Positions 1 through 54,442 of a stretch of DNA of 64,000 nt are shown one piece after another. The DNA is from an uncultured delta proteobacterium. GTDB taxonomy: Bacteria; Desulfobacterota; Binatia; DP-6. The position numbers were made by a program, and so were the translations under genes. The notes below the pieces were generated by a model that searched no databases, was not told where the DNA came from, and saw nothing but the letters and a program-made list of their open reading frames with translations. The first letter of the stretch is position 1; every line of letters starts with the position of its first letter. The stretch lies in the NCBI GenBank assembly GCA_963815115.1, contig CAWFFN010000005.1, forward strand, positions 1,664,001-1,728,000, written 5' to 3'.

Positions 1-212
1 TGCCCGGTCGTGCCCTGGAGGGTGCCGTTGAAGATCATGTCGACCGGCACGAACTTCGGCGAGCCCTTGGGCGGCTTCCCGGGGTAGCAGCGCCATCCCT
101 GCGGGGCGATCTGCGTGGACGCGGTGTCCGTCCAGAGCAGCGACAGAACCGTTGCCGCGACCACGACGGCGGCGCACACGGCCCACGCTGGCCGGCGGCG
201 GGTTCCTTCCAT
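1..212 (-). CDS. Secreted hypothetical protein (5' part only, runs off window)
   Basis: Read manually: ATG at 212, GGAG RBS at 221-224 (minus); MEGTRRRPAWAVCAAVVVAATVLSLLWTDTASTQ signal-like start; open to the window edge. Confidence 0.6.
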   Translation of the reverse strand, partial: MEGTRRRPAWAVCAAVVVAATVLSLLWTDTASTQIAPQGWRCYPGKPPKGSPKFVPVDMIFNGTLQGTTG

Positions 213-279: not shown

Positions 280-2052
280 TCATCCCTCGGCGGCGGCCAG
301 GTGCCGGAAGGCAGCGTTGTCGCTCAGGAGGTCCTCGTAGCGGCCCTCGGCGGCGATGCGGCCATCGGCGAGCAGGACCAGGCGATCGCAGCAGCGGACG
401 CTGGTCAGGCGGTGCGCGACGACCACCAGCGTGAGGACCCCGCGCAGCGGCTCGATGGCGCGCAGCAGCTCTGCCTCCGTGTGGTTGTCCAGCGCCGCGG
501 TCGCCTCGTCGAACACCAGGACGTGGGGCCGGTGGTACAGCGCGCGCGCGATCCCGACTCGCTGGCGCTGCCCGCCCGAGAGACGGGCGCCTCGCTCGCC
601 GACGGTGGTGGCGAGCCCCTGGGGCAGGCCCGCGACGAACTCGTCGAGCTGCGCCATGCGCACGACCTCACCCACCCGCTCCTCGTCGACGGCATCGTCC
701 GCGACGCCGAGCGCGATGTTGCGGCGCAACGAGTCGTCCACGAGCGCGACGGTCTGCGGCACGTACCCGATCGCACGTCCCCAGGCGCGGCGGACCTCAC
801 GGAGATCGCGCCCGTCGATCGTGATGCGGCCGGCCGTCGGGGAGAGCAGTCCGCAGAGCAGGTCCACGAGCGTGCTCTTGCCCGCGCCGGTCGCACCGAC
901 GACGCCGACCGATTCGCCGCGCCGGATGGTGAGGTCGAGATCGGCCAGCGCGGGTCCCGGTGCGCCATCGTAGGCGAACGACGCGTTTGCCAGCACGATC
1001 GCGTTGCTGAAGGGAAGCGGTGCCCCGCCGGCGTCGCTGGCGAGCGCGGGAGCGGCGCCGGCCAGGTCCGCGTGCAGCGCGCGCACGGACGCCCCGCCGG
1101 CCCGGATCTCGTTCACCAGCATGAGGATGCGGTTGGCGGAGGGAATCACGCGAAAGCCCGCGTAGGCGTAGAGTCCGAGCAGCGGGACGACGTCCGGGCC
1201 GGGTCTGCCGAGGCGAACGAGTGCCACCACGACCGCCAGCGCCCCGAGCACGAAGACCGATTCGACCAGCACCCGGGGCAGGGCCGCGAGGGTGTCGGTC
1301 AGGTGCCGGACGCGCGCCAGTGCGTCCTGGCTGCGGGCGAACTGGCGGAAGAAGAAGCTCTCGCGGCCGAGGACCTTGATCTCCTTCACGGCGCCGAGGG
1401 TGGCCTGCACCCCTCCCAGCATGTCACGCTCCAGCGCGTACGTGCGCTCGCCCCAGCGGCGGGCGCGCGCCCGCGTCGCGTGCAGCAGGATCGCGCCCGT
1501 GGCGCCGAGCGCGAGCACGAGCCCGAGCGTCATGGCGGGTGACGTGAAACCGAGGACGGCCGTGATGGCGAGGACGACGAGCATCTCGGTGGCCACGGTG
1601 ACGGCGGGCGCGAGCACCCGGCGGCAGACGTCGTCGGCGCCGGTGGTGACGTTGTGGATGAGCTCGGCCGAGTTGCGGCGGAGGTGAAAAGGGTAGGGCG
1701 CTCCCAGATAGACGGCGAGCGCGCGGCGCGCGATCTCGGCGCGTCCCTCGGCCACGCGTGCGGTCTGCACCCACGCCTGCCAGACCTGGAAGGCGTTCTT
1801 CGCCAGGTAGAAGAACGCCAGCAGGACCGTGAAGATCACCACGGTTCCACGCCAGTCGCCTCCGGCGAGCGCCGCGACCACGGGCAGGCGGCCTGCCGCC
1901 GCCGGATCCCCCACGATGCGGATGAGCACGTAGAGGGCGGCCGCGCCGAGCGCCTCCGCTCCCGCGGCGGCGAGCGACAGCGGCACGAGCGCCGCCCACT
2001 GCCGTCGCATGGCGGGTGGCAGAAGCGCGAGGGCGTTCCGGATGGTGGTCAT
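280..2052 (-). CDS. ABC transporter fused TMD+ATPase, PglK/HetA-like lipid-linked oligosaccharide flippase
   Basis: TM segments, YPFHLRRNSAELI and RVIPSANRI (PglK-like), Walker A GATGAGKST, LSGGQRQR, DEATAALD; start MTTIRN overlaps the upstream stop. Confidence 0.85.
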   Translation of the reverse strand: MTTIRNALALLPPAMRRQWAALVPLSLAAAGAEALGAAALYVLIRIVGDPAAAGRLPVVAALAGGDWRGTVVIFTVLLAFFYLAKNAFQVWQAWVQTARVAEGRAEIARRALAVYLGAPYPFHLRRNSAELIHNVTTGADDVCRRVLAPAVTVATEMLVVLAITAVLGFTSPAMTLGLVLALGATGAILLHATRARARRWGERTYALERDMLGGVQATLGAVKEIKVLGRESFFFRQFARSQDALARVRHLTDTLAALPRVLVESVFVLGALAVVVALVRLGRPGPDVVPLLGLYAYAGFRVIPSANRILMLVNEIRAGGASVRALHADLAGAAPALASDAGGAPLPFSNAIVLANASFAYDGAPGPALADLDLTIRRGESVGVVGATGAGKSTLVDLLCGLLSPTAGRITIDGRDLREVRRAWGRAIGYVPQTVALVDDSLRRNIALGVADDAVDEERVGEVVRMAQLDEFVAGLPQGLATTVGERGARLSGGQRQRVGIARALYHRPHVLVFDEATAALDNHTEAELLRAIEPLRGVLTLVVVAHRLTSVRCCDRLVLLADGRIAAEGRYEDLLSDNAAFRHLAAAEG

Positions 2053-3316
2053 CACGCCAGGTCCGGAACGAGCACCGGGCGGGCCGCTGCCGTCCAGGCG
2101 TCCGCCCAGCGCTGATCCGTCTCGCGTGCCACGCCTGCCCGGAGGCGGTCGAGCAGCGCGGCCTGATCGGGGAACCCATCGAGAACGCGGCGCAGGCACT
2201 CCACCAGCTCCTCGGCGCTGCGGAAGAGGAGGGCGTTGTCTCCCTCGCGTGCGAGCTCGCCCAGACACGGTCCGTAGTCGAACGCCACGACGGGCACCCC
2301 CGCGCCGAACAGGTCGGCCACCTTCATCGGGAGGTCGAGTCCCGACGCCGAGCGGTGCAGGCAGAGCCCGAGATCGGCCGCGCCGAGGAATCGGCGATAC
2401 TCCGCGGAGGGCAGCCACAGGGTGCGCAGGTGAACCCGCTCGAGCCGGAGCGCCGCGAAGCGGCGCTCGTAGTCCGCCCTGAGCGGTCCCTGACCCGTGA
2501 CCACGATCGCGAGCCGCGCCCGCGTCGTCCCGACGCGCCGGTCCCACTTGAGGGCGGCGTCCACGAGCAGCTCGAAGTCCTCGTCGGCCGTCCAGCTGGT
2601 CGGACTGACGACGAGTGCCGGGCGTCCCTCGTCACCGTCGCCGGCGAGTCCGGGGAGGTCGAGGCGTAACGCCAGCTCGTCGAGCACTGCTCGCCGGTCG
2701 TCGGGAAGGAGCGGCTCGAAGCCCGCGCCGGGCCGGTCACGAAAGACCGTCGCACGACCGACCTTCCAGCGGACGAGCTCGGCGGCGAGCGCGCGCGAGA
2801 CGCAGAGATGCGCGTCCGCGCATCGTCCGAGGCCCCGTTCGAGACCGCGCGACGAGACCGACCAGGGGGTGTCGCGGGCCCAGGCGCAACGCCAGCATCG
2901 CCCAGCCGAGGTTGTGCCAGTCGACGACCAGGCGGGCGCTCCGGATGCGGCAGACGGCGAGCGCCACCACGAGCGCCGGGATCGTGGGCGGGTTCTGCAC
3001 CAGGATCACGCTGCGGGGCTCGACGGTGCCGGAGAGCGTCGCGAGGAGCGCGGCGGCTGCGCGGACGGCGTTCCAGAGGGCGACGGCCAGGAAGAGCGGG
3101 CGGGGCAGCCCGTGGCGTCGGGCGCCAGCCGGCGCCGCGAGGATGTGCACCACGACGCGGGGGTCGTTTGCGATCTCGGACGGGATACTCGGTCTCCTCG
3201 TAGCCCACGAGGTGCACGTCCGCGCCGCTGTCGGCCAGCGCACGTGCGTGGTACAGCATCCGCGGGCTGCGCCCCAGATCCCCCAGCACCACCACGGTCA
3301 CGCGGAAGCGAGGCAT
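2052..3316 (-). pseudogene. ALG1-like (GT33) chitobiosyl-PP-lipid beta-1,4-mannosyltransferase, split by two +1 frameshifts (~3190, ~2845); pseudogene or sequencing indels
   Basis: Three frames join into VVLGDLGRSPRMLYHA...LVQNPPTIP...VDWHNLGW...SPTSWTADEDF...TGQGP...ADLGLCLHRSASGLDLPMKVADLFG; 1265 bp = 421 codons + 2 extra nt. Confidence 0.85.
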
Positions 3317-4460
3317 GGAGACGGCCGGTGTCATAGCCCACCCGCCGCGGACGCTCCACGGGCGCCGCATCGCCATCGCGGGGGGTGGAACCGCGGGCCA
3401 CGTGCAGCCGGCGCTCGCCGTCGCCGAGGCGTACCGCGCCGCGGTGCCCGACGTCGAGGTCCTCTTCCTGGGGACGCCGACCGGAGCCGAGAGCCGGCTG
3501 GTGCCGGCGCACGGCCATCGGCTCGCGACGGTGACGGCGGCGCCGTTCTTCGGCGTCGGACCGGTCGGCCGGCTGCGCAGCGTCACGGCGCTGGCTGCCG
3601 GCGCCGCGCAGGCGCGCCGCGTGCTGCGCGCCGAGGGGATCGAGCTCATCCTCGGCCTCGGCAACTTCGCAGCCGCCGGCGCAGTCCTGGGCGCCCGGAC
3701 GCTCGGACTCCCCACCGTGATCCACGAGGCCAACGCCGTGGCGGGGGTGGCGAACCGGCTGCTCGGCCGGCTGGTCGATCGCGTGCTGCTCGGCTTCGCC
3801 GACGCCGCGCCGGCCTTTCCACGCGGCGCGACACTGCTCACCGGCACGCCGGTCCGGGCCGCGCTCGGCGGGCTGGCGACCTCGCGCGAGACGCGTGCCC
3901 CGGGAGCGATTCGACTCCTCGTCCTCGGCGGATCGCAGGGCTCGCCGTTCCTGAACGCGCGCGTGCCGGAGGCGGCGGGGCGCGTGGCGGGTCGCGGGCT
4001 CGCGGTGGAGGTCTGGCACCAGACCGGCCGTGGCGACACCGATCCGGTGCGCGCCGACTATCAGCGCAACGGCGTGCCCGCCCGCGTCGTGTCATCCCTC
4101 GACGACATGACGGACGCCTACCGCTGGGCAGACATCGCGATCGCGTGTGCCGGTGCAGTCACGCTGGCCGAGCTGGCCGTCGTCGCGCTCCCGGCGCTCC
4201 TGGTGCCGCTCGCGACGGCGGCGCTCGACCACCAGCGCGCGAACGCGAGCGCCTTCGCCGCTGCCGCCGGCGTATGGTGGACGGGCGAGAACGCCTGGGA
4301 TGCGACCGTCGTCGAGGAGCGGCTCGCCGCGCTGGTCGCCTCGCCGGATGAACGGCGCACTGCCAGGATACGGATCGCCGCCGCGGCCAGGCCGGAGGCG
4401 GCTGCCGACGTGGTGGCGGCCTGCGAGGCTCTCCTCCGGTCGGCCGGTGCGCGCAGGTGA
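3315..4460 (+). CDS. MurG-like GT28 beta-1,4-GlcNAc transferase (paralog outside the dcw cluster)
   Basis: GGGTAGHV, HEAN, TGTPVR, GGSQG, HQTG, DHQRANA motifs. Confidence 0.85.
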   Translation: METAGVIAHPPRTLHGRRIAIAGGGTAGHVQPALAVAEAYRAAVPDVEVLFLGTPTGAESRLVPAHGHRLATVTAAPFFGVGPVGRLRSVTALAAGAAQARRVLRAEGIELILGLGNFAAAGAVLGARTLGLPTVIHEANAVAGVANRLLGRLVDRVLLGFADAAPAFPRGATLLTGTPVRAALGGLATSRETRAPGAIRLLVLGGSQGSPFLNARVPEAAGRVAGRGLAVEVWHQTGRGDTDPVRADYQRNGVPARVVSSLDDMTDAYRWADIAIACAGAVTLAELAVVALPALLVPLATAALDHQRANASAFAAAAGVWWTGENAWDATVVEERLAALVASPDERRTARIRIAAAARPEAAADVVAACEALLRSAGARR

Positions 4461-4467
4461 CGAGGGC

Positions 4468-5517
4468 TCACCGGGAGCCGCGCGCGCGCAGCCATCGCGC
4501 CGTGACGGCGATGGCGAGCACGGCGCCGCCGACGGCGGCGATCGTTGCGGGGCGTCCGGCGACGACGGCGACGACGGCGACGGCGCCGAACGTGGCGCAA
4601 ACCCCGTAGAGGAGCAGCACGGCGCCGCGGTGGCTCATCCCGTCGCCGAGCAGGCGGTGATGGATGTGTCCCTGGTCCGCCCGCGCGATGCCCCCGACAC
4701 CGGCGGCGAGCACGCGCCGCAGCACGGCCAGCGCCGTGTCTGCGACGGGGAGCCCGAGGGCCAGCACCGGTGCGAGCACGACGACGGCGGTCGCGCTCTT
4801 GGCCAGCGACTCCAGCGCGAGAATCGCCATCGTGTAGCCGATGAGCAGGCTTCCCGTGTCTCCCAGGAAGATCGAGGCGGGCGGAAAGTTGTAGGCGAGG
4901 AACCCGGCCAGTCCACCGCCGAGGGCAGCCCACATGCCGGCGGCGTCGTACCGCCCCTCGGCCAGACAGACCAGGCACAGCGCCGTCGCGGCGATCGCAC
5001 CGGTGCCGGCGGCGAGACCGTCGAGGCCGTCGATCAGGTTGATGGCGTTGGTGATGGCGACGATCCAGGCGACGGTGAGCACGCCACCGGCGCCGCCGAG
5101 GTCGAGCCAGTGTCCGGTGAAGGGATTGGTGAGACCCTCGAGGGTGTAGCCGCCGGCGACGGCGAGCGTGGCGGCGAGCACCTGGAGGGCGAGCTTGGGG
5201 GCGACCGGGAGCCCGGCCAGGTCGTCAGCCACGCCGATTGCGACGATCACCGTGAAGCCCGCGATCAGCAGCCCCGGGGTGCGCCCTGGCGCAGCCAGCG
5301 CGTGGAGTGCGCTGCCCCCCGCGAGCCCGTCCAGGACGAGCGCGCCAGCGACGGCGACGAGGACCGCCAGTCCGCCGAGCCGCGGAGTGGGGCGGACGTG
5401 CACGCGGCGCGGACCTGGATCGTCGACGGCCCCGATGCGCCTGGCGGCGGCGCGCACCACGGGAGTGACCAGCAGAGCGAGCGCTGCCGCGGTCGCGGCG
5501 AGGATCAGGTATTCCAC
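4468..5517 (-). CDS. WecA/TagO/MraY-family undecaprenyl-phosphate GlcNAc-1-phosphate transferase
   Basis: PTPRLGG, GVADD, NAINLIDGLDGLA, YNFPPASIFLGDTGS, ADQGHIHHRL (WecA-type HIHH); many TM helices. Confidence 0.9.
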   Translation of the reverse strand: MEYLILAATAAALALLVTPVVRAAARRIGAVDDPGPRRVHVRPTPRLGGLAVLVAVAGALVLDGLAGGSALHALAAPGRTPGLLIAGFTVIVAIGVADDLAGLPVAPKLALQVLAATLAVAGGYTLEGLTNPFTGHWLDLGGAGGVLTVAWIVAITNAINLIDGLDGLAAGTGAIAATALCLVCLAEGRYDAAGMWAALGGGLAGFLAYNFPPASIFLGDTGSLLIGYTMAILALESLAKSATAVVVLAPVLALGLPVADTALAVLRRVLAAGVGGIARADQGHIHHRLLGDGMSHRGAVLLLYGVCATFGAVAVVAVVAGRPATIAAVGGAVLAIAVTARWLRARGSR

Positions 5518-5694
5518 CGTCGCTCACCCGCCCCAGACGAGGGTGCTACCACCGCCCCGCCGGCGCACGCCACCGCGGGTGAGGCGGCGCGTGCTGGTCT
5601 TGCCGGCGGTGCCGAGGTAAGCGGGCGAGTGCCGGCAAGAGACCGCGTGCCGCGCCTGCCGCGCTCCAGGATCGCGCTCCGCCACTACGCCCTC

Positions 5695-6528
5695 GTGAGC
5701 GCCCCTGCGTTCGTGGCATCGCGCGTGCTCGATCGGCTGGTGCGGCCGCGGGTCTATCTCGGCGACCATACCCTGATGACCCGGACGGTCTTCGGTCACG
5801 TCCTCTACCTGGACACACGCGACGACAGCCTGTTGCCGGCGCTCGCCCTGCGCGGGGTCTGGGAGCCGAACGTCACGCGTGTCTTCCTGCGCCTGCTGCG
5901 GCCCGGCATGCGAGTGGTCGAGATCGGAGCGAACGTGGGCTACTACACCGTTCTGGCGGGCTCGTGCGTCGGCCCGTCGGGCAGCGTGGTCGCCTTCGAG
6001 GCCAATCCGCGCGCCGCGGAGCGCCTGCGACGCGCCGTCATCGTGAACGGCTACCAGTGGTGGACGCGCGTGGTCGTGTCGGCCGTCGCGGACCGCCAGG
6101 GTCGGGCGACGCTCCACCTGCTCGAGCGCCAGCAGGGAAGCTCGAGTCTCTTCCCGCGAGGCGACGCGTACCTCGAGCACCACGCCGAACAGGCGAGCCC
6201 GCTCGAGGTGCCCGTGACCACGCTCGACGGGTTTCTCGGGCCAGACCCCGCGCCGATCGATCTGCTGAAGATCGACGCGGAGGGCACCGAGCCGTTGATC
6301 TTCGCGGGCATGAGCGAGCTGCTCGCGCGCAGCCCGCATCTGCGCGCGGTGATCGAATTCGCCCCGCCGCTCATGGCGAACGCCGGGCGCGACGCGGGAG
6401 CATTTCTCGACACGCTCGCGTCACTCGGCTTTCACATCGACGTGATCGACGCGCGCGGCGGCCTTTGCACCGCGACGACCGCGCAGCTCCTCGCCGCCGA
6501 ATCGAGCGAGCTGCTGCTCTCGCGCTGA
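5695..6528 (+). CDS. FkbM family SAM-dependent methyltransferase (start approximate)
   Basis: GVWEP, VEIGANVGYY, VAFEANP, VTTLD, LLKIDAEGTE. Confidence 0.85.
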   Translation: MSAPAFVASRVLDRLVRPRVYLGDHTLMTRTVFGHVLYLDTRDDSLLPALALRGVWEPNVTRVFLRLLRPGMRVVEIGANVGYYTVLAGSCVGPSGSVVAFEANPRAAERLRRAVIVNGYQWWTRVVVSAVADRQGRATLHLLERQQGSSSLFPRGDAYLEHHAEQASPLEVPVTTLDGFLGPDPAPIDLLKIDAEGTEPLIFAGMSELLARSPHLRAVIEFAPPLMANAGRDAGAFLDTLASLGFHIDVIDARGGLCTATTAQLLAAESSELLLSR

Positions 6529-6534
6529 GCGCGC

Positions 6535-8025
6535 TCAGAGATCGAACGCGGCGCTCAGGTCTCCCATCCCTCGCCGCACGCCCGGCAGCGGCTCGAGATC
6601 GAAGCGGCGCGTGATGAACTTCAGGATCGAGGTCGTGTCGTAGCGGGTGTGATCGACGAAGCCGCGCCGGGCGAAGGGCGAGATGACGATGGTGGGGATG
6701 CGGGTGGCCGGCCCCCAGCGGTCGCCCGCGGGCGGCGGGACGTGATCCCAGAAACCCCCGTTCTCGTCGTAGGTGACGATGATCGCCGTGCTCTGCCAGA
6801 GCGGGCTCGCCTGGATGCGCGCGACGATCTCGGCGATGTGCCGGTCGCCCGGCAGGATCGTGGTGTAGCCGGGATGCTCGTTCAGGCTGCCCTCGGGCTT
6901 GTAGAAGGCGACCTGGGGCAGGGCGCCCGAGTCGATGTCCGCCAGGAGCTGGTGGAGGTCCTTCAGATGATCGGTGCGGTCTGCCGTGCCGGGAGCGAAG
7001 CGCGCGAAGTAGTTGAACGGCTGGTGATGGGGCTGGAAGTTGACGGGGTTCTCGTAGATCACGCTGCGCTTGACGTCCGGGGGCTGCATCCCGTCTCTGG
7101 TAGCGGCTTCCCAGGCTCCCGCGTACCAGGCCCACGAGATTCCCCTCGCGGACAGCGTGTCGCCGATGGTCTTCTGACGCTGGGGCGGTAGCGGATGCTT
7201 CGACGGATCCGCGAGGCGCGGATCGCCGCCGGGCGCGGGAGGAATCTGGCTGGGCTGGAACGGCGGCTGCTCGGTGTTCACGGCGTATCCGTCGGGCGTC
7301 ACGCTGCCGTCGAAGAGAAACGGCGGCCCCGACATCGCGGAGGCCGGGGAGCCGGGTCTGGCGAGCAGCTCCCCGTTCTGGTCGAGCATCACGCGCACCG
7401 ACCACGGCGCGTCGGGATCCACGGGCGTGCACGCGCAGACGAGCCAGAAGTGGTTCAGGAACGACCCGCCGAATGCGCCCATGAAGAAGTTGTCGGCCAG
7501 CGTGTACTGGCGTGCCAGGGCCCACATCGGCAGCGTCGCGCCGTCGTAGTAGCCCATGGGCAGGGCGCCGCCGTCGGACATCGCGACGTACCGGTCGAGC
7601 TTGCCGCCGTCGATCTGCGCCCGGTTCTGGTAGTAGCGATGGACGAGATCCCGCGTCCGCTCCGCGATGGACCGGTTGATCGGCGCCGCGTCGATGCGGA
7701 ACGTCGCGTTCGGAAGGTTCGTCGGAAAGGTGGGATCGGGCACGTTGCCATTCCACACCGGTCCGGGAGCGCTGGGCTTCCATACCGGCGGGAGCACCGG
7801 CAGCGGCTTGCCGTCGCGATCGACCTGGATGGTTCGCCTGGCGTTGCCGATCCCGTTGGCGCCCGGGAACAGGCCGTAGAGGTGATCGAAGCTGCGGTTC
7901 TCGGCGTAGATGACGACGATGTGCTGGATCGCGTCGAGTCGCCTCGGCCCCTGGCCGGCTCGATACGGCGAGCACCCGGCGAGGGACAGGAGGGCCAGGA
8001 GGAGGAGACGGAAGACCAGGCGCAA
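6535..8025 (-). CDS. acpA: Acid phosphatase AcpA / phosphoesterase family lipoprotein
   Basis: Lipobox LAGC; VIYAENRSFDHLYG, LADNFF, GGSFLNH, NEHPGY, TYDENGGFWDHV. Confidence 0.85.
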   Translation of the reverse strand: MRLVFRLLLLALLSLAGCSPYRAGQGPRRLDAIQHIVVIYAENRSFDHLYGLFPGANGIGNARRTIQVDRDGKPLPVLPPVWKPSAPGPVWNGNVPDPTFPTNLPNATFRIDAAPINRSIAERTRDLVHRYYQNRAQIDGGKLDRYVAMSDGGALPMGYYDGATLPMWALARQYTLADNFFMGAFGGSFLNHFWLVCACTPVDPDAPWSVRVMLDQNGELLARPGSPASAMSGPPFLFDGSVTPDGYAVNTEQPPFQPSQIPPAPGGDPRLADPSKHPLPPQRQKTIGDTLSARGISWAWYAGAWEAATRDGMQPPDVKRSVIYENPVNFQPHHQPFNYFARFAPGTADRTDHLKDLHQLLADIDSGALPQVAFYKPEGSLNEHPGYTTILPGDRHIAEIVARIQASPLWQSTAIIVTYDENGGFWDHVPPPAGDRWGPATRIPTIVISPFARRGFVDHTRYDTTSILKFITRRFDLEPLPGVRRGMGDLSAAFDL

Positions 8026-8078
8026 CGCTCACCTTCCGCGACGGGGGCGTATCACCGATGGCGTGCGACGGCGAACGA

Positions 8079-8552
8079 CTACTTGACGGTGATCGTTCCT
8101 TGCCGGCCCAGCTTCTCGTCCATCGGCCGCGCCTGGTCCATCACCTTGACGGTGAAGGCGTAGTAGCCCGGCGCGAACGAGCAGACGCTTCCGAAGTCAC
8201 CTGGCGGCATGTCCGCGACGAGATGGCCATCCTCCCCGGTGCGGAACTCCGCCCACGGCGCCTCGCCACGTTCCAGCCGCTTCGGGTCTGCCAGGCGGCA
8301 CGTGACCTTTCCGGCCTGTACGCTGGGAGTCACGAACTCGACCCGCAGGGGCTGGTCCGCCGTGCTGGTGAACCCGACGGTCTCCGCCGTTCCGATCGTC
8401 AGATCCGGCGGATCGATGATGCTCCGGCCGATCAAGATCGTCTTGCGGGCCGGCGCCGCGCTGGAGGTGGGGGCGGGTCGGGTCTGCCCCGCACACCCGG
8501 CCAGCGCCGCCAGTCCAAGTCCTGCCCCGAGCACACGCGTCCATCGGGTCAT
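8079..8552 (-). CDS. Hypothetical lipoprotein, possible cupredoxin-like beta sandwich
   Basis: Lipobox LAALAGC; DPPDLTI..ETVGF and FAPGYYAFTV patterns. Confidence 0.6.
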   Translation of the reverse strand: MTRWTRVLGAGLGLAALAGCAGQTRPAPTSSAAPARKTILIGRSIIDPPDLTIGTAETVGFTSTADQPLRVEFVTPSVQAGKVTCRLADPKRLERGEAPWAEFRTGEDGHLVADMPPGDFGSVCSFAPGYYAFTVKVMDQARPMDEKLGRQGTITVK

Positions 8553-8685
8553 CGATGGGCTCCCCCTTTCGTCCGGTGATGAGGCTTCTGGCGTGACGCA
8601 CTCTTCCCTGTCAAGGAGCGCGTACTCCGACCTCGCGCCTCGCCCGACCCTTGACCGCTACACCGCGCGACGCGAGAAGGGGGAC

Positions 8686-9459
8686 ATGAGCGGCGTCGAC
8701 CTGCGCGGCCGCACGGCGATCGTCACCGGCGCCGGGCGAGGCATCGGGGCGGCCATCGCACGCGGGCTCGACGCCGCCGGCGCCCGGGTGGCGCTGGTTG
8801 CGCGCACGGAGACCGAGCTGCGCGAGGTGGCTGCAGGCCTTCGCAACGACCCCGTCGTCGTGACGGCCGATCTCGGCACGGCGGGGGGACCGGCCGCAGC
8901 CGCCGCCGCCGCGCTCGACGCATTGGGTGGACGGCTCGACGTGCTCGTGAACAACGCCGGTGCCGGCGTCCGCAAGGACAGCCACACCCTGACGGTCGAG
9001 GAGATGGATCGTCTGTGGCACGTCAACGTGCGCGCCGCGCTCCTGCTCGGCGCAGCCGTCCTGCCCGCGATGATCGCCCGCGGCTCGGGCTCGATCGTGA
9101 GCATCTCCTCGATCTCCGGGCGCCGCGGGGCGCCGCGGCGCGCGCTCTACGCGGCCACCAAGGCCGCCCTCGACGGCATGACGCGTGCGCTCGCCATGGA
9201 GTACGGCCCGCGCGGCATCCGGGCGAATGCGGTGGCGCCGGGCGTGGTGGAGACCGCGATGTGGCGCGAGCATCTCGCCGAGCCCGGCGTGGCCGACGCG
9301 GTGCTCGGCGTGATTCCGATGCGCAGGCTCTCGACGGCGGAGGAGGTCGCGGACGTGGTGGTCTTCCTGGCTTCCGACGCGGCGCGCGCGATCACCGGCG
9401 AGGTGATCTCGGCGGACGGCGGCATCCACTCGACGGTCAACCTCTGGCCGACGGTGTGA
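8686..9459 (+). CDS. SDR family oxidoreductase
   Basis: TGAGRGIG, NNAG, YAATK, NAVAPG; GGGGA RBS before ATG 8686. Confidence 0.9.
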   Translation: MSGVDLRGRTAIVTGAGRGIGAAIARGLDAAGARVALVARTETELREVAAGLRNDPVVVTADLGTAGGPAAAAAAALDALGGRLDVLVNNAGAGVRKDSHTLTVEEMDRLWHVNVRAALLLGAAVLPAMIARGSGSIVSISSISGRRGAPRRALYAATKAALDGMTRALAMEYGPRGIRANAVAPGVVETAMWREHLAEPGVADAVLGVIPMRRLSTAEEVADVVVFLASDAARAITGEVISADGGIHSTVNLWPTV

Positions 9460-9482
9460 CGGGTGACACGGCCGCTGCCGCC

Positions 9483-12400
9483 TCAGGGGAGGCCGGCGCC
9501 GTGCTTGCCCTTCGGCTGCAGGCTCAGCCGACCCGCCGCGCACTGGCTCCCGGTGTCGATCGTGATCTCCACCGGCGACAGCAGTGGACTCCCGGGCTTC
9601 ATCCGCCCGAGGATCACCGTCGCCTTCGCCGGTCCCGTCCTGGGCACCACCAGGCGAACGCATTTGATGGGCGGGCAGAGCGTCATCCGCTGGTCGAAGA
9701 ATCCGTACGTCTGGTGGAAGAGCTTCTGCCACTGCTGCGTTCCGATGGTGCAGCAGACCTGCTCGCCCGAATCGGCGCGGATCTGCACGCGCACGTCCTG
9801 GGCGCGCGGGTCGACCCCGGCGAACGCGCCGGGGGCCAGCGTGGCCGTGGCGCGCAGCGTGGACTTCCCCGGGCGGAAGCGTGCCTGCGTGAAGGTGAGG
9901 GACTGGGCCGTGCAGCACGCCGGGTCCTCGGCGTCGACGAGCCCGTTCTGGTCGTCGTCGATGCAGTTGCCGCAGTCCTCCGGCGTCAGGCCCGGGGTTG
10001 CGACGGTCGCGGTGTCGTCGGAGGGATTCGGATCGGGCTCCGTGGCCGTCACGGTGGCCGTGTTGCTGAACGCGTTGTCGTTCGCGCGCGTTCCGACGAT
10101 GGCCACGGTCGCGGTGGCACCCGACGCGAGGTCGCCGAGGACGCACGTGACGACCTGCACGGCGGTGGTGCAGGTGCCCTGGCTCGGCGTCAACGTACCC
10201 GGGGTCACGGCAGAGGGCAGGGGATCGACCACGGTGACGTTCGTCGCCTTCGCCGGACCCGCGTTGGTGACCGTGAGCGTATAGCTGAGCGCCTCGCCGT
10301 TCCTCGGCTGCGCCGGGCTGACGCTCTTCGTGAGGTGGAGGTCGGCCTGCGCCGGAACGGTCGTCTGTGCCGTGGCGCCGTTGTTCGTCGCGACCGGGTC
10401 GGGCTGATCGCTCCTGACCGTCGCGGTGTCGACCAGCGCGCCGGACGCACTCGGCAGGACGCGCACGACGATGGTGGCCGTCAGCGTACCGCCGCTCGCG
10501 AGGCTGGCGACCGTGCAAGTGATCGGGTTGCCGCCGGTGCAGGCTCCGGCGCTCGCGGTGGCGGACACGAGCTGGACGCCGGCCGGTAGCGTGTCGGTGA
10601 GGAGCACGTTGCTCGCCGAGGCCGGGCCGTGGTTCACGACCCGCAGGGTGTAGGTGACCTGGGTACCGGATGCTGCGCTCGTGGGCGTGCCGGTCTTGCT
10701 GACCTCGAGATCGGCGTCGGTCGGTGGTGGAGGCGACACGAGCCCGACCTCCGTGGTGACGCTGCCGGTGTCGTCGGACGCATCGGGATCTGGAGTCGAG
10801 CTTGCCACCGTGGCGCTGTTCACGACCTCGGTGGCCTCGGGCAGCACGGTGTAGGTCGCGACGATGGTGCGCGAGCCGCTCGGCGCGATCGTCCCCAGCG
10901 CGCACGGGAACGCGGTCATGCAATCGCCGCCGTTGGACACGAAGGCGAGACCCGGCGGCGTCGGGTCGGTCACCACCACATCGGTCGCGGTCGACGCCCC
11001 CGCGTTGCTCACCACGATGGTGTAGGACACGCGCTCTCCGGGGAACGCGCTCGCCGGGCCGGCCTTCGTCACGCCGAGGTTCGCCGAGGATGTGAGATCC
11101 GTCGAGTCGGTGGCGTCGTCGCTCGTCGGGTCGGGATCGACGGTCCCGGTGGGCGCCCGCACGCTCGCGGTGTTCGTCACCGCGCCCGTGGCATCGGGCG
11201 GCACCGTGGCGGTCGCGATGAACGTGGCGCCGCCGCCGGCCGGCAGATCGACGGTCGTCGCGATGGCCCCCGTACCGCCGGGGGTGCCGCAGCTTCCGCC
11301 AGGAGTCGCGCTGCACGACCAGCTCGCGCCCGTCAGCGGCCCCGGGAAGGTGTCGCCGACTGGCGCCCCGGCGACGTCGCTGGGTCCGGCGTTCTGGACG
11401 GTGATGGTGTAGGTCAGCGGGGCGCCGGGAAGAGCCAGCGTCTGGCCGTCGGTCTTGGTGATGGAGAGGTCGGCGACCAGCGCCGTCGTGCCCGGTACGC
11501 TGCTCGCGTCGTTCGCCGGGTTGGGGTCGATCTCGTTCCCGGCGGTGCGGCTGGCGGTGTTCGTGAAGGAGCCCAGCCTGGTGACCCGTGCCGTGATGGA
11601 GAGGATGGCCGAGCGGGTGGCCGGGAGGTTGCCGACCGTCCACGTGCCGGAGTCCTCGTCGTAGGTGCCCTGCGACGCCGGGGCCGACACGACGGCAAAC
11701 CCGGGCGGCAGCAGGTCGGTGACCACGACGCCGGTGGCTGGGCTCGGCCCGTGGTTGGTCGCGGTGACCGTGAAGCTGACCTGGCCTCCGACCGCCGGCG
11801 AGGCGGTGCTGATCGTCTTGCCGACGTCGATGTCGGCGGTGGCGGCGGCGTTGAGCGACAGGCTCGCCTGGTCGTTGAGCGGGTTGGGGTCGATCTCGGT
11901 CTGGCCGGTCTTCCGCGCCACGTTGACCAGCGTGCCCGTCGTGTTGACCGACGCGACGACGGTCAAGGTGGCCGACGTCGAGGCGGTGAGGTCCCCCACC
12001 GTCCAGATGCCGCTGGCCGCGTCGTAGGTGCCCTGCGACGGAGCGGCCGATGTCAGCGCGAGGCCTGCCGGCAGCGCGTCCTGCACCTCGACGCCGGTGG
12101 CGTCGCTCGGCCCGCGGTTGGTCGCGGTCACGGTGAAGGTGACGCTCTCGCCGACCGAGGGTGTCGTCTTGTCGGCCGTCTTCTGGACGGCCACGTCGGC
12201 CGCGGCGGCGACGTTGATGGTGGCGGCACCCGACTCGTTGCCCGGGTTGGGGTCGGGCTCGTTGCCGCCCGTGCGAATGGCGAGGTTGGTGATGTCGCCG
12301 GGCTGCGTCACCTGCGCCTGGATCGTCAGCTCGACCGACTGGCCGGCGGCGAGGGCGGAGATCACCCACTCGCCGCTCGAGTCCGTGTAGGCGCCCTGCG

Positions 12401-15400
12401 TGGGCGACGCCGACACGAAGGACAGGCCGGCCGGCAGGAGGTCCGTGACGACGACTCCCGTCGCAGCGTTGGGGCCGTTGTTGCGCGCCTGGATCGTGAA
12501 GCTGACGGAGTCGCCAACCAGGATTCCGGTCGCGGGAGCGACGGACTTGGTCACCTCCACGTCGGCATTGGCGTCGACCGGCGTCTGTACGCTGGCGGAG
12601 TCGTTCCCCGGGACGGGGTCGGGTGTCTGGCTCGACACGCTCGCCGTCTGCACGATCGGGTTCGGCGTCTGGTAGCCCGGCGGCACGAGCAGGGTGGTGG
12701 TGATGGTCCGAGACGCTCGCGGGGCGAGCGTGGCCAGCGTGCACGGGAACGGCGTCGTGCAGTCGCCGCTGTTGGAGACGAAGGTCAGACCGCTCGGTGT
12801 CGAGTCGTTCACCACGACGTTGGTCGCGGTGGACGGCCCCTCGTTCGTCACGACGATGGTGTAGACGGCGGCGTTGCCCGGAACCACGGTCGGCGGTCCG
12901 GACTTCGTCAGGGCCAGATCCGCCTGCGGCGTCAGCTCATCGGTGTCGGTGGCGACGCCGGAGCCAGGATTGGCGAAGCCCGCAGGAGGCATCGCTTCGG
13001 CGGTATTGGTCAGCGTCCCCGTGGCATCCGCCGGGACGGTGCCCGTCAGCACGAACGTCGCGGCAGTGTTCGCGGGCAAGTTGACGGTCGTGTCGATCGA
13101 GCCCGCCCCGGTCGGCGTCGTGCAGCTCCCGCCGCCCGTCGCGCTGCACGTCCACGTCGCGCCGCTCAGCACCGTCACCTGATCCTGCACGCTGACACCG
13201 CTGGCATCGCTCGGGCCGCTGTTGGTGACGGTGATGGTGTACGTGGTCGGATTGCCCGGTACCACGCTGGCCGTCCCGTCGTCCTTCGTCACCGTCAGCG
13301 TGGCCTGCCGGTCGCTCAGGCTCGCGCTCGCGCTACCGGCGTTGTTCGCCGGAACCGGATCGGGCGTGGCGCTCGACGCCGTGGCCGTGTTCTCGATCGG
13401 ATCGGGGCCGGCGTAGTTGCCCGGGATGTGGAAGAGCGAGGTGATGGTGGCGCTCGCCCCCGGCGCGAGGGTGCCGAGGGTGCAGGGGAACACGGTCGTG
13501 CAGGCGTCGCCGTTCGAGGTGAACGTCAGCCCCGTCGGGGTCGGGTCGTCGACCACGACGCCGACGGCCGTCGAGGGACCGATATTGGTGACGACGGTCG
13601 TGAAGGTGATGTCGTCGCCGGCCGTCACCGAGCCCGAGCTCGCCGTCTTGCTCACCTGCACGTCCGCGGAGGGGGTGATGGCCGTCGTGTCGGTCGCCGT
13701 GTCGTCTCCGGGTGTCGGATCGGTGGTGCCGGCGGGCGGCGTGACGCTGGCGCTGTTGGCGAGGGCTCCGATGGCGTCCGGTGTCACCGTGACCGTGGCG
13801 GTGAAGATCGCGGCCGCGCCCGCCGGCAGGTCGACCGTGGTCGCGATGGGACCGTCGCCGCTCGCCGTCCCGCAGGCGCCCCCGTCGGTGGCGCTGCACG
13901 TCCAGGTGACGCCCGTCAGCACCACCGGGAACGTGTCGCTCACCGATGCGCCGGTCACGGTGCTGGGTCCGGCGTTGGCGACCGTGATCGTGTAGATCTC
14001 CATCGCGCCGGCAACCACGGTGTCGAGTCCGTCCGTCTTCGTCACGGACAGATCGGCCACGCGACCCGCCGTCGCCGTGACGCTCCCCGAGTCGTTGCCG
14101 GGGTTCGGATCTTCCTCGCTGGCCGAGGTCTTGATGGCGGTGTTGGTGAACGGGCCGGGCTGCGCGACCAGCGCCGTGATCGAGAGCACGGCCGACTGGG
14201 ACGCCGCGATGCTCCCCGCGGTCCAGGCGCCGCTCGCCGGGTCGTAGGTGCCCTGCGAAGGCGTGGCCGACACGAACGTCAGTTCCGCAGGCAGCTGGTC
14301 CGTGATCAGCACGCCCGTGGCGGGGCTCGGGCCGAGGTTGGTCGCCGTCACGGTGAACGTCACCTGCTGGTCGACCGCGGGCGTCGGGTTGCTGATCGCC
14401 TTGGTGACCCGGATGTCGGCCGTGGTGCCGGCGTTGAGCGAGACGCTGGACTCGTCGTTGGCCGGATTGGGATCGGCCTCGGTCTGCGTCTTGTTCGCCG
14501 TGTTGACGATCATCCCGGGCGTGTTCACGGAGGCGAGCACGGTGAGGGTGGCCGAACCCGGGAACGGAATCGCGCCGACCGTCCACGCCCCGGTGGCCGC
14601 GTCATAGGTCCCCTGCGACGGCGTGGAGGCGACCAGCGCGAGACCCGCCGGCAGCGCGTCGGTGACCGTGATCCCGCTCGCGTTGCTCGGTCCGTTGTTG
14701 GTCGCGGTCACGACGAAGGTCACGATCTGACCGACCGATGGCGTCGGGTTGTCCACCGCCTTCTGGATGGCGACGTCGGCCGCGGCAGCGGCGTTCAGCG
14801 TGGCGACCGCGGAATCGTTGCTGGTGTCGGGATCGGGTTCGTTCGCCGACGTCTTGGTGGCGGTATTGGTGATCGTCCCCGCCTGGGTGAGCACCGCCGT
14901 CATGGTCAGCGTCGCGTTGGCGCCGTTCTGGAGGTCGCCCACCTGCCACTGTCCCGAGGACGGGACGTACGATCCCTGCTGCGGCGAGGCCGAGACGAAG
15001 GTCATGCCGGCGGGGAGCACGTCGGTGATGACGACCCCGCTCGCCTGGTTCGGGCCGTTGTTGAGGACGCTGACGAACAGCGTCACCGTGTCGCCGACGA
15101 GCGCCGAGGTCGGCGCGACGCTCTTCAGGACCGCGACGTCGGCGTTCAGGTCGACCGGGGTCTGCGCGCTCGTGCTCCGGTTGCCCGGGTTCGGGTCCGT
15201 CGTGGTGTCGAACACGCTGGCCGTGTTCACGATCGGATTGGGCGAGGTGTAGCCGAGCGGGACCTCGAAGGTGGCGGTGATGGTACGGGTCTCTCCGGGT
15301 AGCAGCGTCCCGAACTCGCACGGGAATGCCGTGTTGCAGTCACCGGAGGTCGACACGAAGTTCAGCCCGGCCGGCGTCGGGTCGTTCACGGAGGCATCGC

Positions 15401-18254: not shown

Positions 18255-18432
18255 TGAATCGACCTGCGCGCTCGTCTGTGCGCGGGACTATCGCCAATCG
18301 GAACGGATCGTGTCCAGAGGGTAGCGCGCGGGGCTGGCAGTGGGGTGCTTGGAATCGTTCCCCGCGACCTTCCGGGCCGCGCGCCAGCCTGCTGGCCTCC
18401 AGGCGCCATGGAGCTCGACGGCATCCATCCAG

Positions 18433-31227: not shown

Positions 31228-32820
31228 TCACCGAGTCGCGGGCGGGTGCGAGGCGAAGAGGAGATGCCGACCCGCTCCCAGCTCGGAGAACGGACCAGCC
31301 TCCAGCACCTCCGGAACATGCGGGGCGTCGGTCACCACGAAGACCAGGCGTCGCCGGCGGAGCACGTGGCGGAGCTGGTCGATCCGGTCCAGCCGCCTGA
31401 CGGGACCGTCGTGATAGAAGCCCAGGGACGGGGCCTGGACCGCGTAGGCGATCACCGGAACCTGCCCGTCCGGAGCCGCCGCCGCGATCTGCCGGGCGAT
31501 CTCCCGGTCGCTCGCAATGCGGCCCAGGAGCGGCGCCGTCCGTCCATAGAAGGTGAGCGCCGCCACGATCCCGACGAGCGCGACGGCGGGAGCTGCGAGG
31601 TCGGCTCGCCGCGCCGCGACCGGGCCGAGCAGCAACGCGGCGATCAGCATGGCCGCGATCGGCGGGAGGGCCGCGGGTGCGAGCACCGGCGACCAGCGAT
31701 CGGCGCCGGAGCGAATCGCTGCGAGCGCCAGCAGCGCCGCGACTCCCCCGACCGCGAGGCCGCCGAGCACCAGGCGGCGCTCGGAGGATCGAGCCGACGC
31801 GGGCGGATCATGCGCCGTCACGAAGCGGCCGGTCAGCAGCGCGAGCGCCGGCATCGCGGGCAGCACGTAGGTCCCGAGGCCTCCTCGCGACAGGCTGAAG
31901 AAGCCGACGACGCCGAGCGCCCAGCAGACGCAGAACCACGATGCGTCGTCGTCGCGCCGCATGGCCAGCCGACGCCCCACCGCCGGCAGCATGAGCGTCC
32001 AGGGAAGGAAGCCCACGAGAGCGAACAGCGCCGTCATGCCGAAGGGCTGCGGCCGCAGATGAGGCGTCGGGGCGAAGAAGCGCTCGAGGTGCTGCTCCAG
32101 TACGAAATCGCGCAGGTAGCCCGGATCGAGAGCGCCGGCAGCGAGGTACCATGGTCCCGTCACGGCGAGGTAGAGCAGCGCGGCACGGCCCAGGCGCGCA
32201 CCACGCAGAAGAGCGAGCCGGCCGATGGTGGCGAGGTAGAGTGCTCCGATCACCACGAGCAGGATGGGCGTCACGAGCCCCTTGGTCAGCGTGCCCAGCG
32301 CGGCCGCCACCGCGACCGGCCGGAGCGTCGCGCCCTCGCTGCTGCGGGTCGCCCAGCGATGCAGTCCGAGCAGCGCGAGGGTCGTCCACAGCGTGAGGAG
32401 CATGTCGAGGTTGATGATGCGCCCCAGGCCGAGGAACCCGCCCGTGGTGCAAAGCACGGTCGTGCACGCGGCGGCGGCCGCGCGGCCCCAGCGGGCACGC
32501 GCCCAGAGGAAGACGGCGAGCGCCGTCAGGAGCGCCGCCGTGGCGGAGACCGCGCGGGCCGCGAACGCCGTCGGGCCGGCGATCCGGTAGGCCTGGGCCA
32601 CGACCCAGTACAGCAGGATCGGCTTGTCGTGGTACGGACGCCCGTAGATGGACGGCACGATCCACCCGCGCGCGTCGATCGACGTCCAGACGTTGCGCGC
32701 GATCAGCGCGGGGCGCGCCTCGTCCGGATCCCACAGGGCGTGGCCGCCGAGGTTCCAGAAGAGAAGGGTGCCCGCGAGGAGCGCGACGAGCGCGACGTCG
32801 CCCAGGAGACGCAACCGCAT
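31228..32820 (-). CDS. ArnT-like GT-C (PMT_2) glycosyltransferase
   Basis: LWDPDEAR, DKPILLYW, LDMLLT, LTKG, PWY, FLPW, YVLP; many TM helices. Confidence 0.85.
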   Translation of the reverse strand: MRLRLLGDVALVALLAGTLLFWNLGGHALWDPDEARPALIARNVWTSIDARGWIVPSIYGRPYHDKPILLYWVVAQAYRIAGPTAFAARAVSATAALLTALAVFLWARARWGRAAAAACTTVLCTTGGFLGLGRIINLDMLLTLWTTLALLGLHRWATRSSEGATLRPVAVAAALGTLTKGLVTPILLVVIGALYLATIGRLALLRGARLGRAALLYLAVTGPWYLAAGALDPGYLRDFVLEQHLERFFAPTPHLRPQPFGMTALFALVGFLPWTLMLPAVGRRLAMRRDDDASWFCVCWALGVVGFFSLSRGGLGTYVLPAMPALALLTGRFVTAHDPPASARSSERRLVLGGLAVGGVAALLALAAIRSGADRWSPVLAPAALPPIAAMLIAALLLGPVAARRADLAAPAVALVGIVAALTFYGRTAPLLGRIASDREIARQIAAAAPDGQVPVIAYAVQAPSLGFYHDGPVRRLDRIDQLRHVLRRRRLVFVVTDAPHVPEVLEAGPFSELGAGRHLLFASHPPATR

Positions 32821-33027
32821 CCGGTGTCACGTGGCGGAGCCGCCGGTCCTCACGAGCTCGCCATGCCCGACCCTGTCCGCGGCACGCTTCGCCACCCTGG
32901 ACGTCTCGATGGGTAGCAGGGGCAGGGTGCGGGTGACAACTCCTGCGCAGCGAGACGTGGCGCCTCGCGCGCGGACGGTGGACACGACGGGACGACTCGC
33001 GTAGGGGCCGATCCGAAGGAAGAGAGC

Positions 33028-41460: not shown

Positions 41461-41602
41461 ACCCTGACCTTCCCCGGGCCGCTTCCCGTGGTCAAGCCAG
41501 GTCGGCGATCATGCGAAGTGCTCCGTCACCCGCCGGGATGCCCGGCCGGCGCCCGGTGCCGGGGTTGGGCGGCCAGCCCAACATACGGTAAATACGATAC
41601 CG

Positions 41603-54439: not shown

Positions 54440-54442
54440 GGG

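Follow-up and report, generated by a model that had tools for sequence, protein, structure and literature searches.

The pgl cluster of Campylobacter jejuni is composed of PglC, PglA, PglJ, PglH and PglI together with PglK and PglB, and in eukaryotes the enzymes ALG7, ALG13/14, ALG1, ALG2/ALG11 and STT3 follow one another as members of the PNPT, GT28, GT33, GT4 and STT3-family oligosaccharyltransferase (OST) superfamilies. Here we describe a gene cluster of a soil bacterium of the Binatia in which the same order of enzyme superfamilies is found. The cluster is about 10.5 kb long (G000:C5:1660061-1670528, where G000 is the organism's own genome), and its right-hand two thirds lie within a stretch of 64,000 nucleotides, hereafter the window, whose base 1 is G000:C5:1664001. 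From the window alone, an earlier note had proposed that five adjacent genes mirror the eukaryotic route from ALG7 to ALG1; as a whole this interpretation is supported, and the computational tests that it proposed all came out in its favor. We read the full cluster as probably, though far from certainly, encoding a bacterial system of N-linked protein glycosylation with a eukaryote-like core of mannose (Man) and two N-acetylglucosamine residues (Man-GlcNAc2), each step being deduced from the genes.

The crenarchaeal pathway of AglH, Agl24 and AglB (Meyer et al., 2022, eLife, PMC8993221, as far as its text was available to us) resembles the present one in its lipid-linked GlcNAc-GlcNAc core, its fused GT28-fold enzyme and its STT3-family OST, although Agl24 lies on the Alg13/14-like branch while the enzyme found here lies on the bacterial MurG branch. 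Desulfovibrio PglB is likewise a bacterial OST from outside the Campylobacterota and forms a GlcNAc-asparagine linkage; the accessible parts of the source (PMC12229607, citing Santos-Silva, 2007) mention no ALG1 or MurG-paralog module.

As for ALG1 itself, no prokaryotic relatives of Alg1 were found by Lombard (2016; PMC4973528, available portion). A BLAST survey has since listed 204 bacterial ALG1 homologs (Xu et al., October 2025, bioRxiv 10.1101/2025.10.15.682550). In the available text of this preprint, five homologs were tested, of which those from Gammaproteobacteria, Polyangia and Binatia were able to complement yeast alg1 and formed beta-1,4-Man-GlcNAc2-diphosphate (PP)-phytanyl in vitro, those from Deltaproteobacteria and Methylomirabilota were inactive, and no reliable archaeal ALG1 homolog is reported. 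Bacterial ALG1 enzymes have thus already been shown to be active, and the remark in the earlier note that there is no characterized bacterial system of this kind is outdated. The preprint treats its enzymes singly: within the same available text the terms operon, gene cluster, neighbo- and synten- are absent, and MurG and WecA are named nowhere but in its introduction and reference list. The literature searched, which covered few subscription journals and no supplements, contained no account of the genes around bacterial ALG1, and within that literature the pathway context appears to be undescribed. This context is given here, and the taxonomic labels of the enzymes tested by Xu et al. resemble those of the partner-bearing loci described below, among which Binatia, Deltaproteobacteria and Methylomirabilia/Rokubacteria dominate.

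The gene cluster and the pathway it may encode

According to the earlier note, no OST lies in the window. This is literally true, yet an STT3 homolog ends just outside its left edge (Table 1). A whole-genome search with the STT3 model gave this homolog as its single match (G000:C5:1661496-1662704), so that the search for an OST suggested in that note led to exactly one gene, adjoining the locus. Among 14 control genomes, the model matched only the four archaea. The homolog scores 60.1 bits with PF02516 (cut-off 24.5) and 32.6 bits with PF21436 (cut-off 23), and it carries the WWDYG motif. All 13 of its PDB matches are OSTs (E 6e-4 to 7e-3), among them archaeal AglB, yeast and human STT3 and Campylobacter PglB, and its close relatives are named Stt3 by JGI. 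An initiating transferase, glycosyltransferases, a flippase candidate and an OST are thus all encoded within 10.5 kb, as in a pgl-type locus.

With a guanine plus cytosine (G+C) content of 69-75% across the window, open reading frames (ORFs) alone are uninformative. Therefore, the genes at 280-6528 were called from third-position G+C, from their translations and from profile searches with Pfam and NCBIfam. Five genes were confirmed exactly where the earlier note had placed them, namely an ATP-binding cassette (ABC) exporter, an ALG1/GT33 homolog, a MurG paralog, a transferase of the WecA/MraY superfamily and an FkbM methyltransferase. Their strands read - - + - + and include divergent and convergent units, which means that the five do not form one operon, and treating them as a single transcription unit had to be given up. 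From left to right, the complete cluster holds GT4, STT3, a small ORF, ABC, ALG1, MurG-like, WecA-like and FkbM. The GT4-STT3 pair (G000:C5:1660061-1663790, equal to L087:16061-19790) lies on the + strand, between 3939 and 210 bases to the left of window base 1, and converges on the ABC-ALG1 unit. In the latter unit the translational coupling noted previously is present, with the ALG1 stop (2054-2052) overlapping the ABC ATG (2052-2050) as TGATG. Start candidates for ALG1 are the ATG at 3334 and the ATG at 3316; the second of these (3316-3314, - strand) overlaps the MurG-like ATG (3315-3317, + strand) back to back in the palindrome CATG, so that the promoter of each gene must sit within the other. 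Very short gaps separating ALG1 from the MurG-like gene are met again in related loci.

In the pathway that we propose, the WecA/ALG7-superfamily transferase would load GlcNAc-1-phosphate onto polyprenyl phosphate, after which the dedicated MurG paralog would attach the second GlcNAc in the role of ALG13/14 and give GlcNAc-beta1,4-GlcNAc-PP-lipid. The ALG1/GT33 homolog would then add beta-1,4-mannose from GDP-mannose, and the GT4 enzyme left of the window would add at least one further sugar, probably alpha-linked, while FkbM may methylate the glycan. Finally, the ABC exporter that is translationally coupled to ALG1 would flip the glycolipid, and the single-subunit STT3/PglB/AglB homolog would move the glycan to asparagine residues of exported proteins.

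Compared with the eukaryotic pathway, ALG1 is a true homolog with common motifs, and the STT3 found here carries WWDYG. The GT28 enzyme, in contrast, is a single-chain MurG paralog rather than the split Alg13/Alg14, and an N-terminal membrane anchor, present in several of the eukaryotic sequences aligned below, is missing from the bacterial ALG1. An ABC exporter is the flippase candidate here, the OST has a single subunit, there is one further GT4 enzyme and an FkbM methyltransferase is added; moreover, the lipid carrier would presumably be undecaprenyl and not dolichyl. With the pgl system the cluster shares its bacterial setting, the predicted cytoplasmic assembly on polyprenyl diphosphate, an ABC flippase candidate and a single-subunit OST with WWDYG. 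It differs from pgl in that the initiator is a polytopic PNPT of the WecA/MraY type and not of the PglC type, and in that the predicted reducing end is GlcNAc-GlcNAc and not bacillosamine; no aminotransferase, acetyltransferase or sugar dehydratase family was matched among the neighboring genes scanned, and pgl is without GT28 and GT33 enzymes.

Table 1. Features of the cluster and its flanks; plain positions count from base 1 of the window
Feature	Position	Strand	Description
GT4 glycosyltransferase, left of window	begins G000:C5:1660061	+	384 residues; ends 5 bases before the STT3 ATG
STT3/PglB/AglB homolog, left of window	G000:C5:1661217-1663790	+	858 residues; ends 210 bases before base 1
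Small ORF, 5' part	1-212	-	about 144 residues; starts at 212 and exits the window leftward; from translation
ABC exporter half-transporter	280-2052	-	590 residues, membrane domain and ATPase; candidate flippase for lipid-linked oligosaccharide; Pfam, NCBIfam
ALG1/GT33 homolog, whole	2052-3334	-	GT-B enzyme, split over three frames
ALG1 C-terminal piece	2052-2849	-	frame 3 of 3, with stop; residues 162-426 of P0001, 85% identity; Glyco_trans_1 family domains
ALG1 middle piece	2851-3189	-	frame 2 of 3; residues 49-161 of P0001, 85% identity; +1 insertion at each end
ALG1 N-terminal piece	3182-3334	-	frame 1 of 3; residues 1-51 of P0001, 90% identity; GDLGRSPRM
MurG paralog	3315-4460	+	381 residues, GT28; divergent from ALG1; proposed transferase of the second GlcNAc
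WecA/MraY/ALG7-superfamily HexNAc-1-phosphate transferase	4468-5517	-	349 residues; proposed initiating enzyme; PF00953
FkbM-family methyltransferase	5629-6528	+	start GTG at 5629 or 5647; PF05050, TIGR01444
Acid phosphatase	6538-8025	-	next after FkbM; conserved with the cluster in 0/80 related loci

The small ORF directly downstream of the ABC gene, whose product is putatively secreted, encodes a hydrophobic N-terminal segment and three N-x-S/T sites. A tblastn search of 80 related loci found it in none of them at E<=1e-6; it is therefore not a conserved member of the cluster, and its place in the system is doubtful.

Family identity of the enzymes

The C-terminal piece of ALG1 has more than 1000 relatives, many of which are named beta-1,4-mannosyltransferase by JGI, and when only longer proteins were searched, eukaryotic proteins named as ALG1 appeared among the matches. 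With 98% of its length aligned, this piece is 38% identical (E 1.5e-48) to a Trema orientale protein annotated as 'Chitobiosyldiphosphodolichol beta-mannosyltransferase ALG1-like'. Seven further eukaryotic matches include Vitrella, two chytrids and three basidiomycetes; four of the seven are named as chitobiosyldiphosphodolichol beta-mannosyltransferase, ALG1-related or family 33, one basidiomycete protein being a 'glycosyltransferase family 33 protein'. In an alignment of six bacterial proteins (the intact homolog P0001 and five others) with six named eukaryotic ALG1s, here called A3, the full-length bacterial relatives are 36-43% identical to the eukaryotic enzymes. The eukaryotic GT33 motifs pointed out in the earlier note are real: in A3, each of GD.GRSPR, QNPP, DWHN, TSW..DED and H.S.SG.DLPMK is either invariant or conserved to at least 90%, and all five occur across the three ALG1 pieces of the window.

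Tree and Atlas comparisons agree with this assignment. In a tree of 41 ALG1 sequences, a short branch with a support of 93 in the SH-like approximate likelihood ratio test (SH-aLRT) separates the eight eukaryotes from the bacteria, and the stand-alone genes of acidobacteria form a nested clade. This tree and the MurG tree below are quick trees with SH-aLRT support only, and since the ALG1 tree is unrooted, no donor can be deduced from it. In both trees, the sequences of the window's own genome group with Candidatus Binatia records. Outside the bacteria, the Atlas clusters closest to P0001 (426 residues, 85% identical) consist of eukaryotic ALG1, at cosine values of 0.98-0.99 and TM values of 0.88-0.92. 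Among solved structures, the C-terminal piece gave only chance matches (P450, Utp16; E 0.09-0.79), and the middle piece and the profile of alignment A2 gave none. Asked whether the protein would group with GT33 or with ordinary GT4 enzymes, the plant and fungal matches, the short branch to the eukaryotes and the Atlas clusters all answer for GT33, and by its sequence the window gene is a member of the ALG1/GT33 family, closer to eukaryotic ALG1 than to generic GT4 enzymes. It is predicted to transfer beta-1,4-mannose from GDP-mannose to GlcNAc2-PP-polyprenol, by analogy with the homologs whose activity was shown elsewhere; for the supply of its substrate, the genome holds GDP-mannose synthesis genes.

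The second enzyme to be placed is the MurG paralog. It matches both GT28 domains (PF03033 94.3 bits, PF04101 98.8 bits), and its translation holds the N-terminal loop G-G-G-T-A-G-H, glycine-rich with a conserved histidine. With TIGR01133, the MurG equivalog model, it scores 242.8-243.1 bits, under the cut-off of 250.25, while the housekeeping murG reaches 295.9 bits. The latter gene is found on another contig at C9:1293979, 2.8 kb from mraY at C9:1290676, and the copy in the window sits between ALG1 and the WecA-like gene, not beside mraY. Cluster-bearing genomes generally carry two MurG-type genes (4/5 in one count and 5/5 in another). After removal of eight rows (second high-scoring segment pairs over the same gene, duplicate copies from the own genome and one fragment of 261 residues) and of 13 identical duplicates, 33 of 34 cluster-linked copies formed a clade apart from nine housekeeping copies with an SH-aLRT of 100, the exception being a long-branched copy from Myxococcales. 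The paralogy that the earlier note had asserted is thus borne out, and judged from these sequences the gene is a distinct, old paralog tied to ALG1. As a single chain of 381 residues whose best model is bacterial murG, it does not belong to the ALG13/ALG14 family; it takes the position of ALG13/14 in the pathway from outside that family, with a proposed role in forming the chitobiose.

The closeness to MurG invites a different explanation, in which the paralog acts on a muramyl-type lipid to give an alternative or modified precursor of peptidoglycan, the ALG1-like enzyme mannosylates some other acceptor and the likeness to ALG7, ALG13/14 and ALG1 is superficial. That the paralog falls only 7 bits short of the equivalog cut-off speaks for this, as does its retention of the glycine-rich loop with the conserved histidine, a MurG feature according to the available text of PMC8993221. 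However, a complete housekeeping murG-mraY pair is present elsewhere in the genome, the cluster contains no Mur ligase genes, and across several phyla the paralog clade keeps company with ALG1 and not with cell-wall genes. Moreover, the bacterial ALG1 homologs described in the available part of the preprint accept GlcNAc2-PP-lipid in vitro, and hence cells that carry ALG1 need a source of chitobiosyl-lipid. We regard the muramyl-lipid explanation as very improbable.

The other enzymes are placed more broadly. 'WecA-type' was the name given earlier to the initiating transferase, and for the superfamily this is right: with PF00953 (Glycos_transf_4) it scores 130.6 bits against a cut-off of 27, and its sequence makes it firmly a member of the WecA/MraY superfamily. 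The narrower name is tentative: the score with the WecA model TIGR02380 is 118.7 bits, below the cut-off of 326, and the sugar specificity is a prediction. Apart from mraY, the genome has no other PF00953 gene. Similarly, what had been called a PglK-like ABC exporter is an ABC exporter (Pfam ABC_tran 112.2 bits, ABC_membrane 27.7 bits), but its best NCBIfam match, PglK (NF050066), scores 263.5 bits against a cut-off of 1000, and MsbA follows with 253.3 bits, also far below its cut-off. From these profile matches, it is an exporter of the general PglK/MsbA type, for which the gene context suggests the role of a flippase. The FkbM methyltransferase was named correctly, with 57.6 bits for PF05050 and 82.4 bits for TIGR01444 (cut-off 37.7). 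It is conserved only in the closest clusters (56% identity in L001, 52% in L121), and O-methylation of the glycan is a possible function. For the GT4 enzyme of the cluster, identification as ALG2 or ALG11 was considered and rejected: its Atlas neighbors are unnamed bacterial and archaeal GT4 clusters, and it is therefore not called an ALG2 homolog.

Conservation of the cluster and co-occurrence with STT3

To see the cluster in related genomes, 236 stretches that encode ALG1 were collected, of which 80 were kept and searched by tblastn with the proteins of the window, a match of at least 130 bits being taken as a strong partner. Most of these loci are titled Binatia, 'delta proteobacterium', Rokubacteria/Methylomirabilia or Vicinamibacterales/Acidobacteriota, with single records from Latescibacterota, Verrucomicrobiia and Myxococcales. 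The MurG-like gene is the most frequent partner (34/80 loci), followed by ABC (28/80), STT3 (21/80), GT4 (19/80) and WecA-like (16/80), while FkbM occurs in 1/80. At least one strong partner is present in 40 loci, at least three in 25 and all five in two, and STT3 stands together with the MurG-like gene in 20. The closest intact cluster, L121, holds the same seven genes in another order. In L122 (G037:C3:2250001-2270000), the WecA-like, STT3, ALG1 and GT4 genes lie compactly on the same strand at about 6645-12467.

A second view comes from the 60 nearest genomes, which as kin are not independent, although the positives span five families. ALG1 is found in seven of them (0/4 in the same genus, 2/24 in the family). 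STT3 exceeds its cut-off in six of these seven, in five of them on the same contig within 1-6 kb, compared with two of the 53 relatives without ALG1. The prediction of the earlier note that the genes would occur together in relatives thus held at the level of both loci and genomes.

In Binataceae-type clusters, a second GT4 gene lies between ALG1 and ABC (L027:11262-12491, L027:15616-16620; likewise in L024) with a sulfotransferase-family gene nearby, and these lineages may accordingly make a longer glycan that bears sulfate. No clear ortholog of this second GT4 was found in the own genome, where the best matches are partial (32-36%) and on C7. Among predicted metagenomic proteins, P0268 and P0287 (763 and 799 residues) are fusions of PNPT and ALG1, P0275 and P0282 (750 and 773 residues) join ALG1 to a second GT4, and P0271 (897 residues) has an ALG1-like N-terminus and an AglB_core-like domain. 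These fusions could be artifacts of gene calling.

Several results weigh against N-linked glycosylation by this cluster, or against our assignment of its steps. The WecA-like enzyme and the ABC exporter match the WecA and PglK models with scores far below the respective cut-offs. The MurG paralog is so nearly an equivalog of MurG (243 against 250 bits) that no preference for GlcNAc-PP-lipid over lipid I can be read from it. Two of the five bacterial ALG1 homologs tested by Xu et al. were inactive according to the available text (bioRxiv 10.1101/2025.10.15.682550). In the G037 cluster (L122), the MurG-like gene was not found at E<=1e-5 and the genome has one MurG-type gene only at E<=1e-20; the second sugar may be added there by another enzyme, or the glycan may be different. 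Half of the loci (40/80), mostly acidobacterial, have no partner nearby, though many are clipped by contig ends. The ALG1-positive relative G027 is without an STT3 match, and STT3 exceeded its cut-off in 0/5 acidobacterial genomes with a stand-alone ALG1. As ALG1 occurs without an OST, ALG1 alone is no proof of N-glycosylation, and the family probably also serves other pathways. In the giant DUF11 protein encoded at window positions 9486-18287, 22 sequons were observed where shuffles gave 32.9 +/- 5.0. To these points the two frame breaks in ALG1, treated below, must be added.

The absence of STT3 from so many ALG1-bearing genomes (the acidobacterial ones and the partnerless loci just counted) also speaks for a glycan destined for something other than protein, for instance a capsule, an O-antigen-like polymer, a glycolipid or a glycopolymer of the cell wall. 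The ABC transporter would export this product, and the neighboring STT3 homolog would have some other role or act on a different glycan. Pathways that are initiated by WecA and exported by ABC transporters are the usual way in which bacteria make surface polysaccharides, and the genome does have five genes of the ligase/polymerase family Wzy_C. None of these, however, lies within 180 kb of the cluster, and no polymerase or chain-length gene was seen among the neighbors scanned by profile. The linkage of STT3 to ALG1, in 21/80 loci and 5/7 ALG1-positive relatives, and the rarity of STT3 in ALG1-negative ones (2/53) also speak against this explanation, and WWDYG together with an STT3-PglB core domain is a hallmark of OSTs that link glycans to asparagine. 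A non-protein product is, on these grounds, improbable for this cluster. For the acidobacterial genes the situation is different, given their unrelated context, the missing STT3 and their nested clade, which make another use of the enzyme likely. In L010, L011, L015, L023, L065 and about 35 further loci labeled Acidobacteriota, ALG1 stands alone beside NDH2, molybdopterin oxidoreductase and Omp85.

Frame breaks in ALG1, surroundings and implications

The ALG1 reading frame is interrupted by two +1 insertions, one near 3186-3189 in a run of C and the other near 2850 in a GCGCG context. Both read as insertions of a single base, and the pair does not restore the frame. The breaks were placed by alignment with the intact homologs P0001 (85%) and P0002 (83%), of 421-426 residues, and then mapped by tblastn, in which residues 1-51 of P0001 correspond to 3334-3182, residues 49-161 to 3189-2851 and residues 162-426 to 2849-2055.

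Were these frameshifts real, the cluster would be genuine but dead or truncated in this strain. If ALG1 is dead, the pathway stops at GlcNAc2-PP-lipid and at most chitobiose would be transferred, or else the locus is decaying after horizontal acquisition. Support for this comes from the breaks themselves: two independent insertions fall in a single gene of 1.26 kb, and none of the six remaining genes of the cluster is interrupted. This also exceeds a uniform error rate, under which about 0.1 break per gene is expected by the count of an uncalibrated detector. The patchy presence of ALG1, missing from the other species of the genus and rare in the family, is what an easily lost accessory cluster would show, and an ISL3-family transposase is encoded in the window (50064-51350, + strand). 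Against a dead gene, the pieces are 85-90% identical to intact P0001, have no stops in their own frames and show a strong third-position GC signal. One of the two insertions falls in a C run, and the assembly, whose 12 contigs reach lengths of up to 1.9 Mb, was probably made from long reads. Our frame-break detector listed 654 candidate breaks in 6.89 Mb, both ALG1 sites included; being home-made, uncalibrated and run without a control genome, with false positives such as an ordinary gene overlap at 43000, it provides no more than a rough hint of many insertions and deletions.

Further genes show the same kind of split. A histidine kinase (window 53040-54442, - strand) has its ATPase tail in another frame, an Amidohydro_3 gene (L087:10603-12370, + strand) is split over two frames, and in the GMP_PMI (GDP-mannose) gene at G000:C7:64211-65618 (+ strand), model positions 1-46 and 47-467 are matched apart. 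Together, these three suggest many insertions and deletions in the assembly, and they too argue against real frameshifts in ALG1. Contigs built from public sequencing reads (11 runs, the best with 0.14 of the sampled words) cover neither break site; they reach only parts of 1900-2810 and 3034-3141, and nothing follows from them on the frameshifts or on the habitat. Taken together, we lean towards assembly errors as more likely than a pseudogene, the chance of a recent pseudogene lying not much below even. A cluster that is dead or truncated in this strain is, accordingly, a serious prospect that we place somewhat below an even chance.

Beyond the acid phosphatase, the window encodes on its - strand, at 9486-18287, the giant protein mentioned above, a frame of 2934 residues in which 19 DUF11 repeats are joined by DUF7507 and CARDB-like domains. 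This probable surface protein was considered as a preferred substrate of the OST and dropped, since its sequons are not enriched. At a distance of 32 kb from the cluster, a GH38 alpha-mannosidase with N-terminal, middle and C-terminal domains is encoded (38923-41508, - strand), for which glycans containing mannose are possible substrates. The gene at 31231-32826 (- strand) encodes a second GT-C enzyme, which belongs to the PMT/PMT_2 family (protein O-mannosyltransferase or ArnT-like, 45.9 bits). Upstream of the cluster, L087:4434-8186 (- strand) encodes a CHAT-AAA-TPR protein of 1251 residues.

The N-glycosylation system that we consider probable would matter in several respects. It is a natural, all-bacterial parts list for a pathway that glycoengineers have built artificially, reportedly by assembling it in E. 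coli from yeast Alg genes and PglB. Its MurG-derived enzyme, in the role proposed here, would be a second solution for the chitobiose step. While the preprint on active bacterial ALG1s leaves their role in bacteria unstated in the text available (bioRxiv 10.1101/2025.10.15.682550), the cluster suggests a Man-GlcNAc2 N-glycan pathway that can be tested. Moreover, the locus bears on the origin of eukaryotic N-glycosylation and gives bacterial ALG1 a context in several phyla. A bolder proposal, which we think unlikely but not negligible, is that Binatia-type soil bacteria, Rokubacteria/Methylomirabilota, some Vicinamibacteria and others N-glycosylate their exported proteins with Man-beta1,4-GlcNAc-beta1,4-GlcNAc-Asn, and that an anciently co-inherited module (PNPT, MurG paralog, ALG1, GT4, ABC flippase and STT3), or its mannosyltransferase part, was the source of eukaryotic ALG1 and perhaps of ALG2. 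If this were true, living bacterial pathways could be used to test how the cytosolic half of N-glycan assembly in eukaryotes arose.

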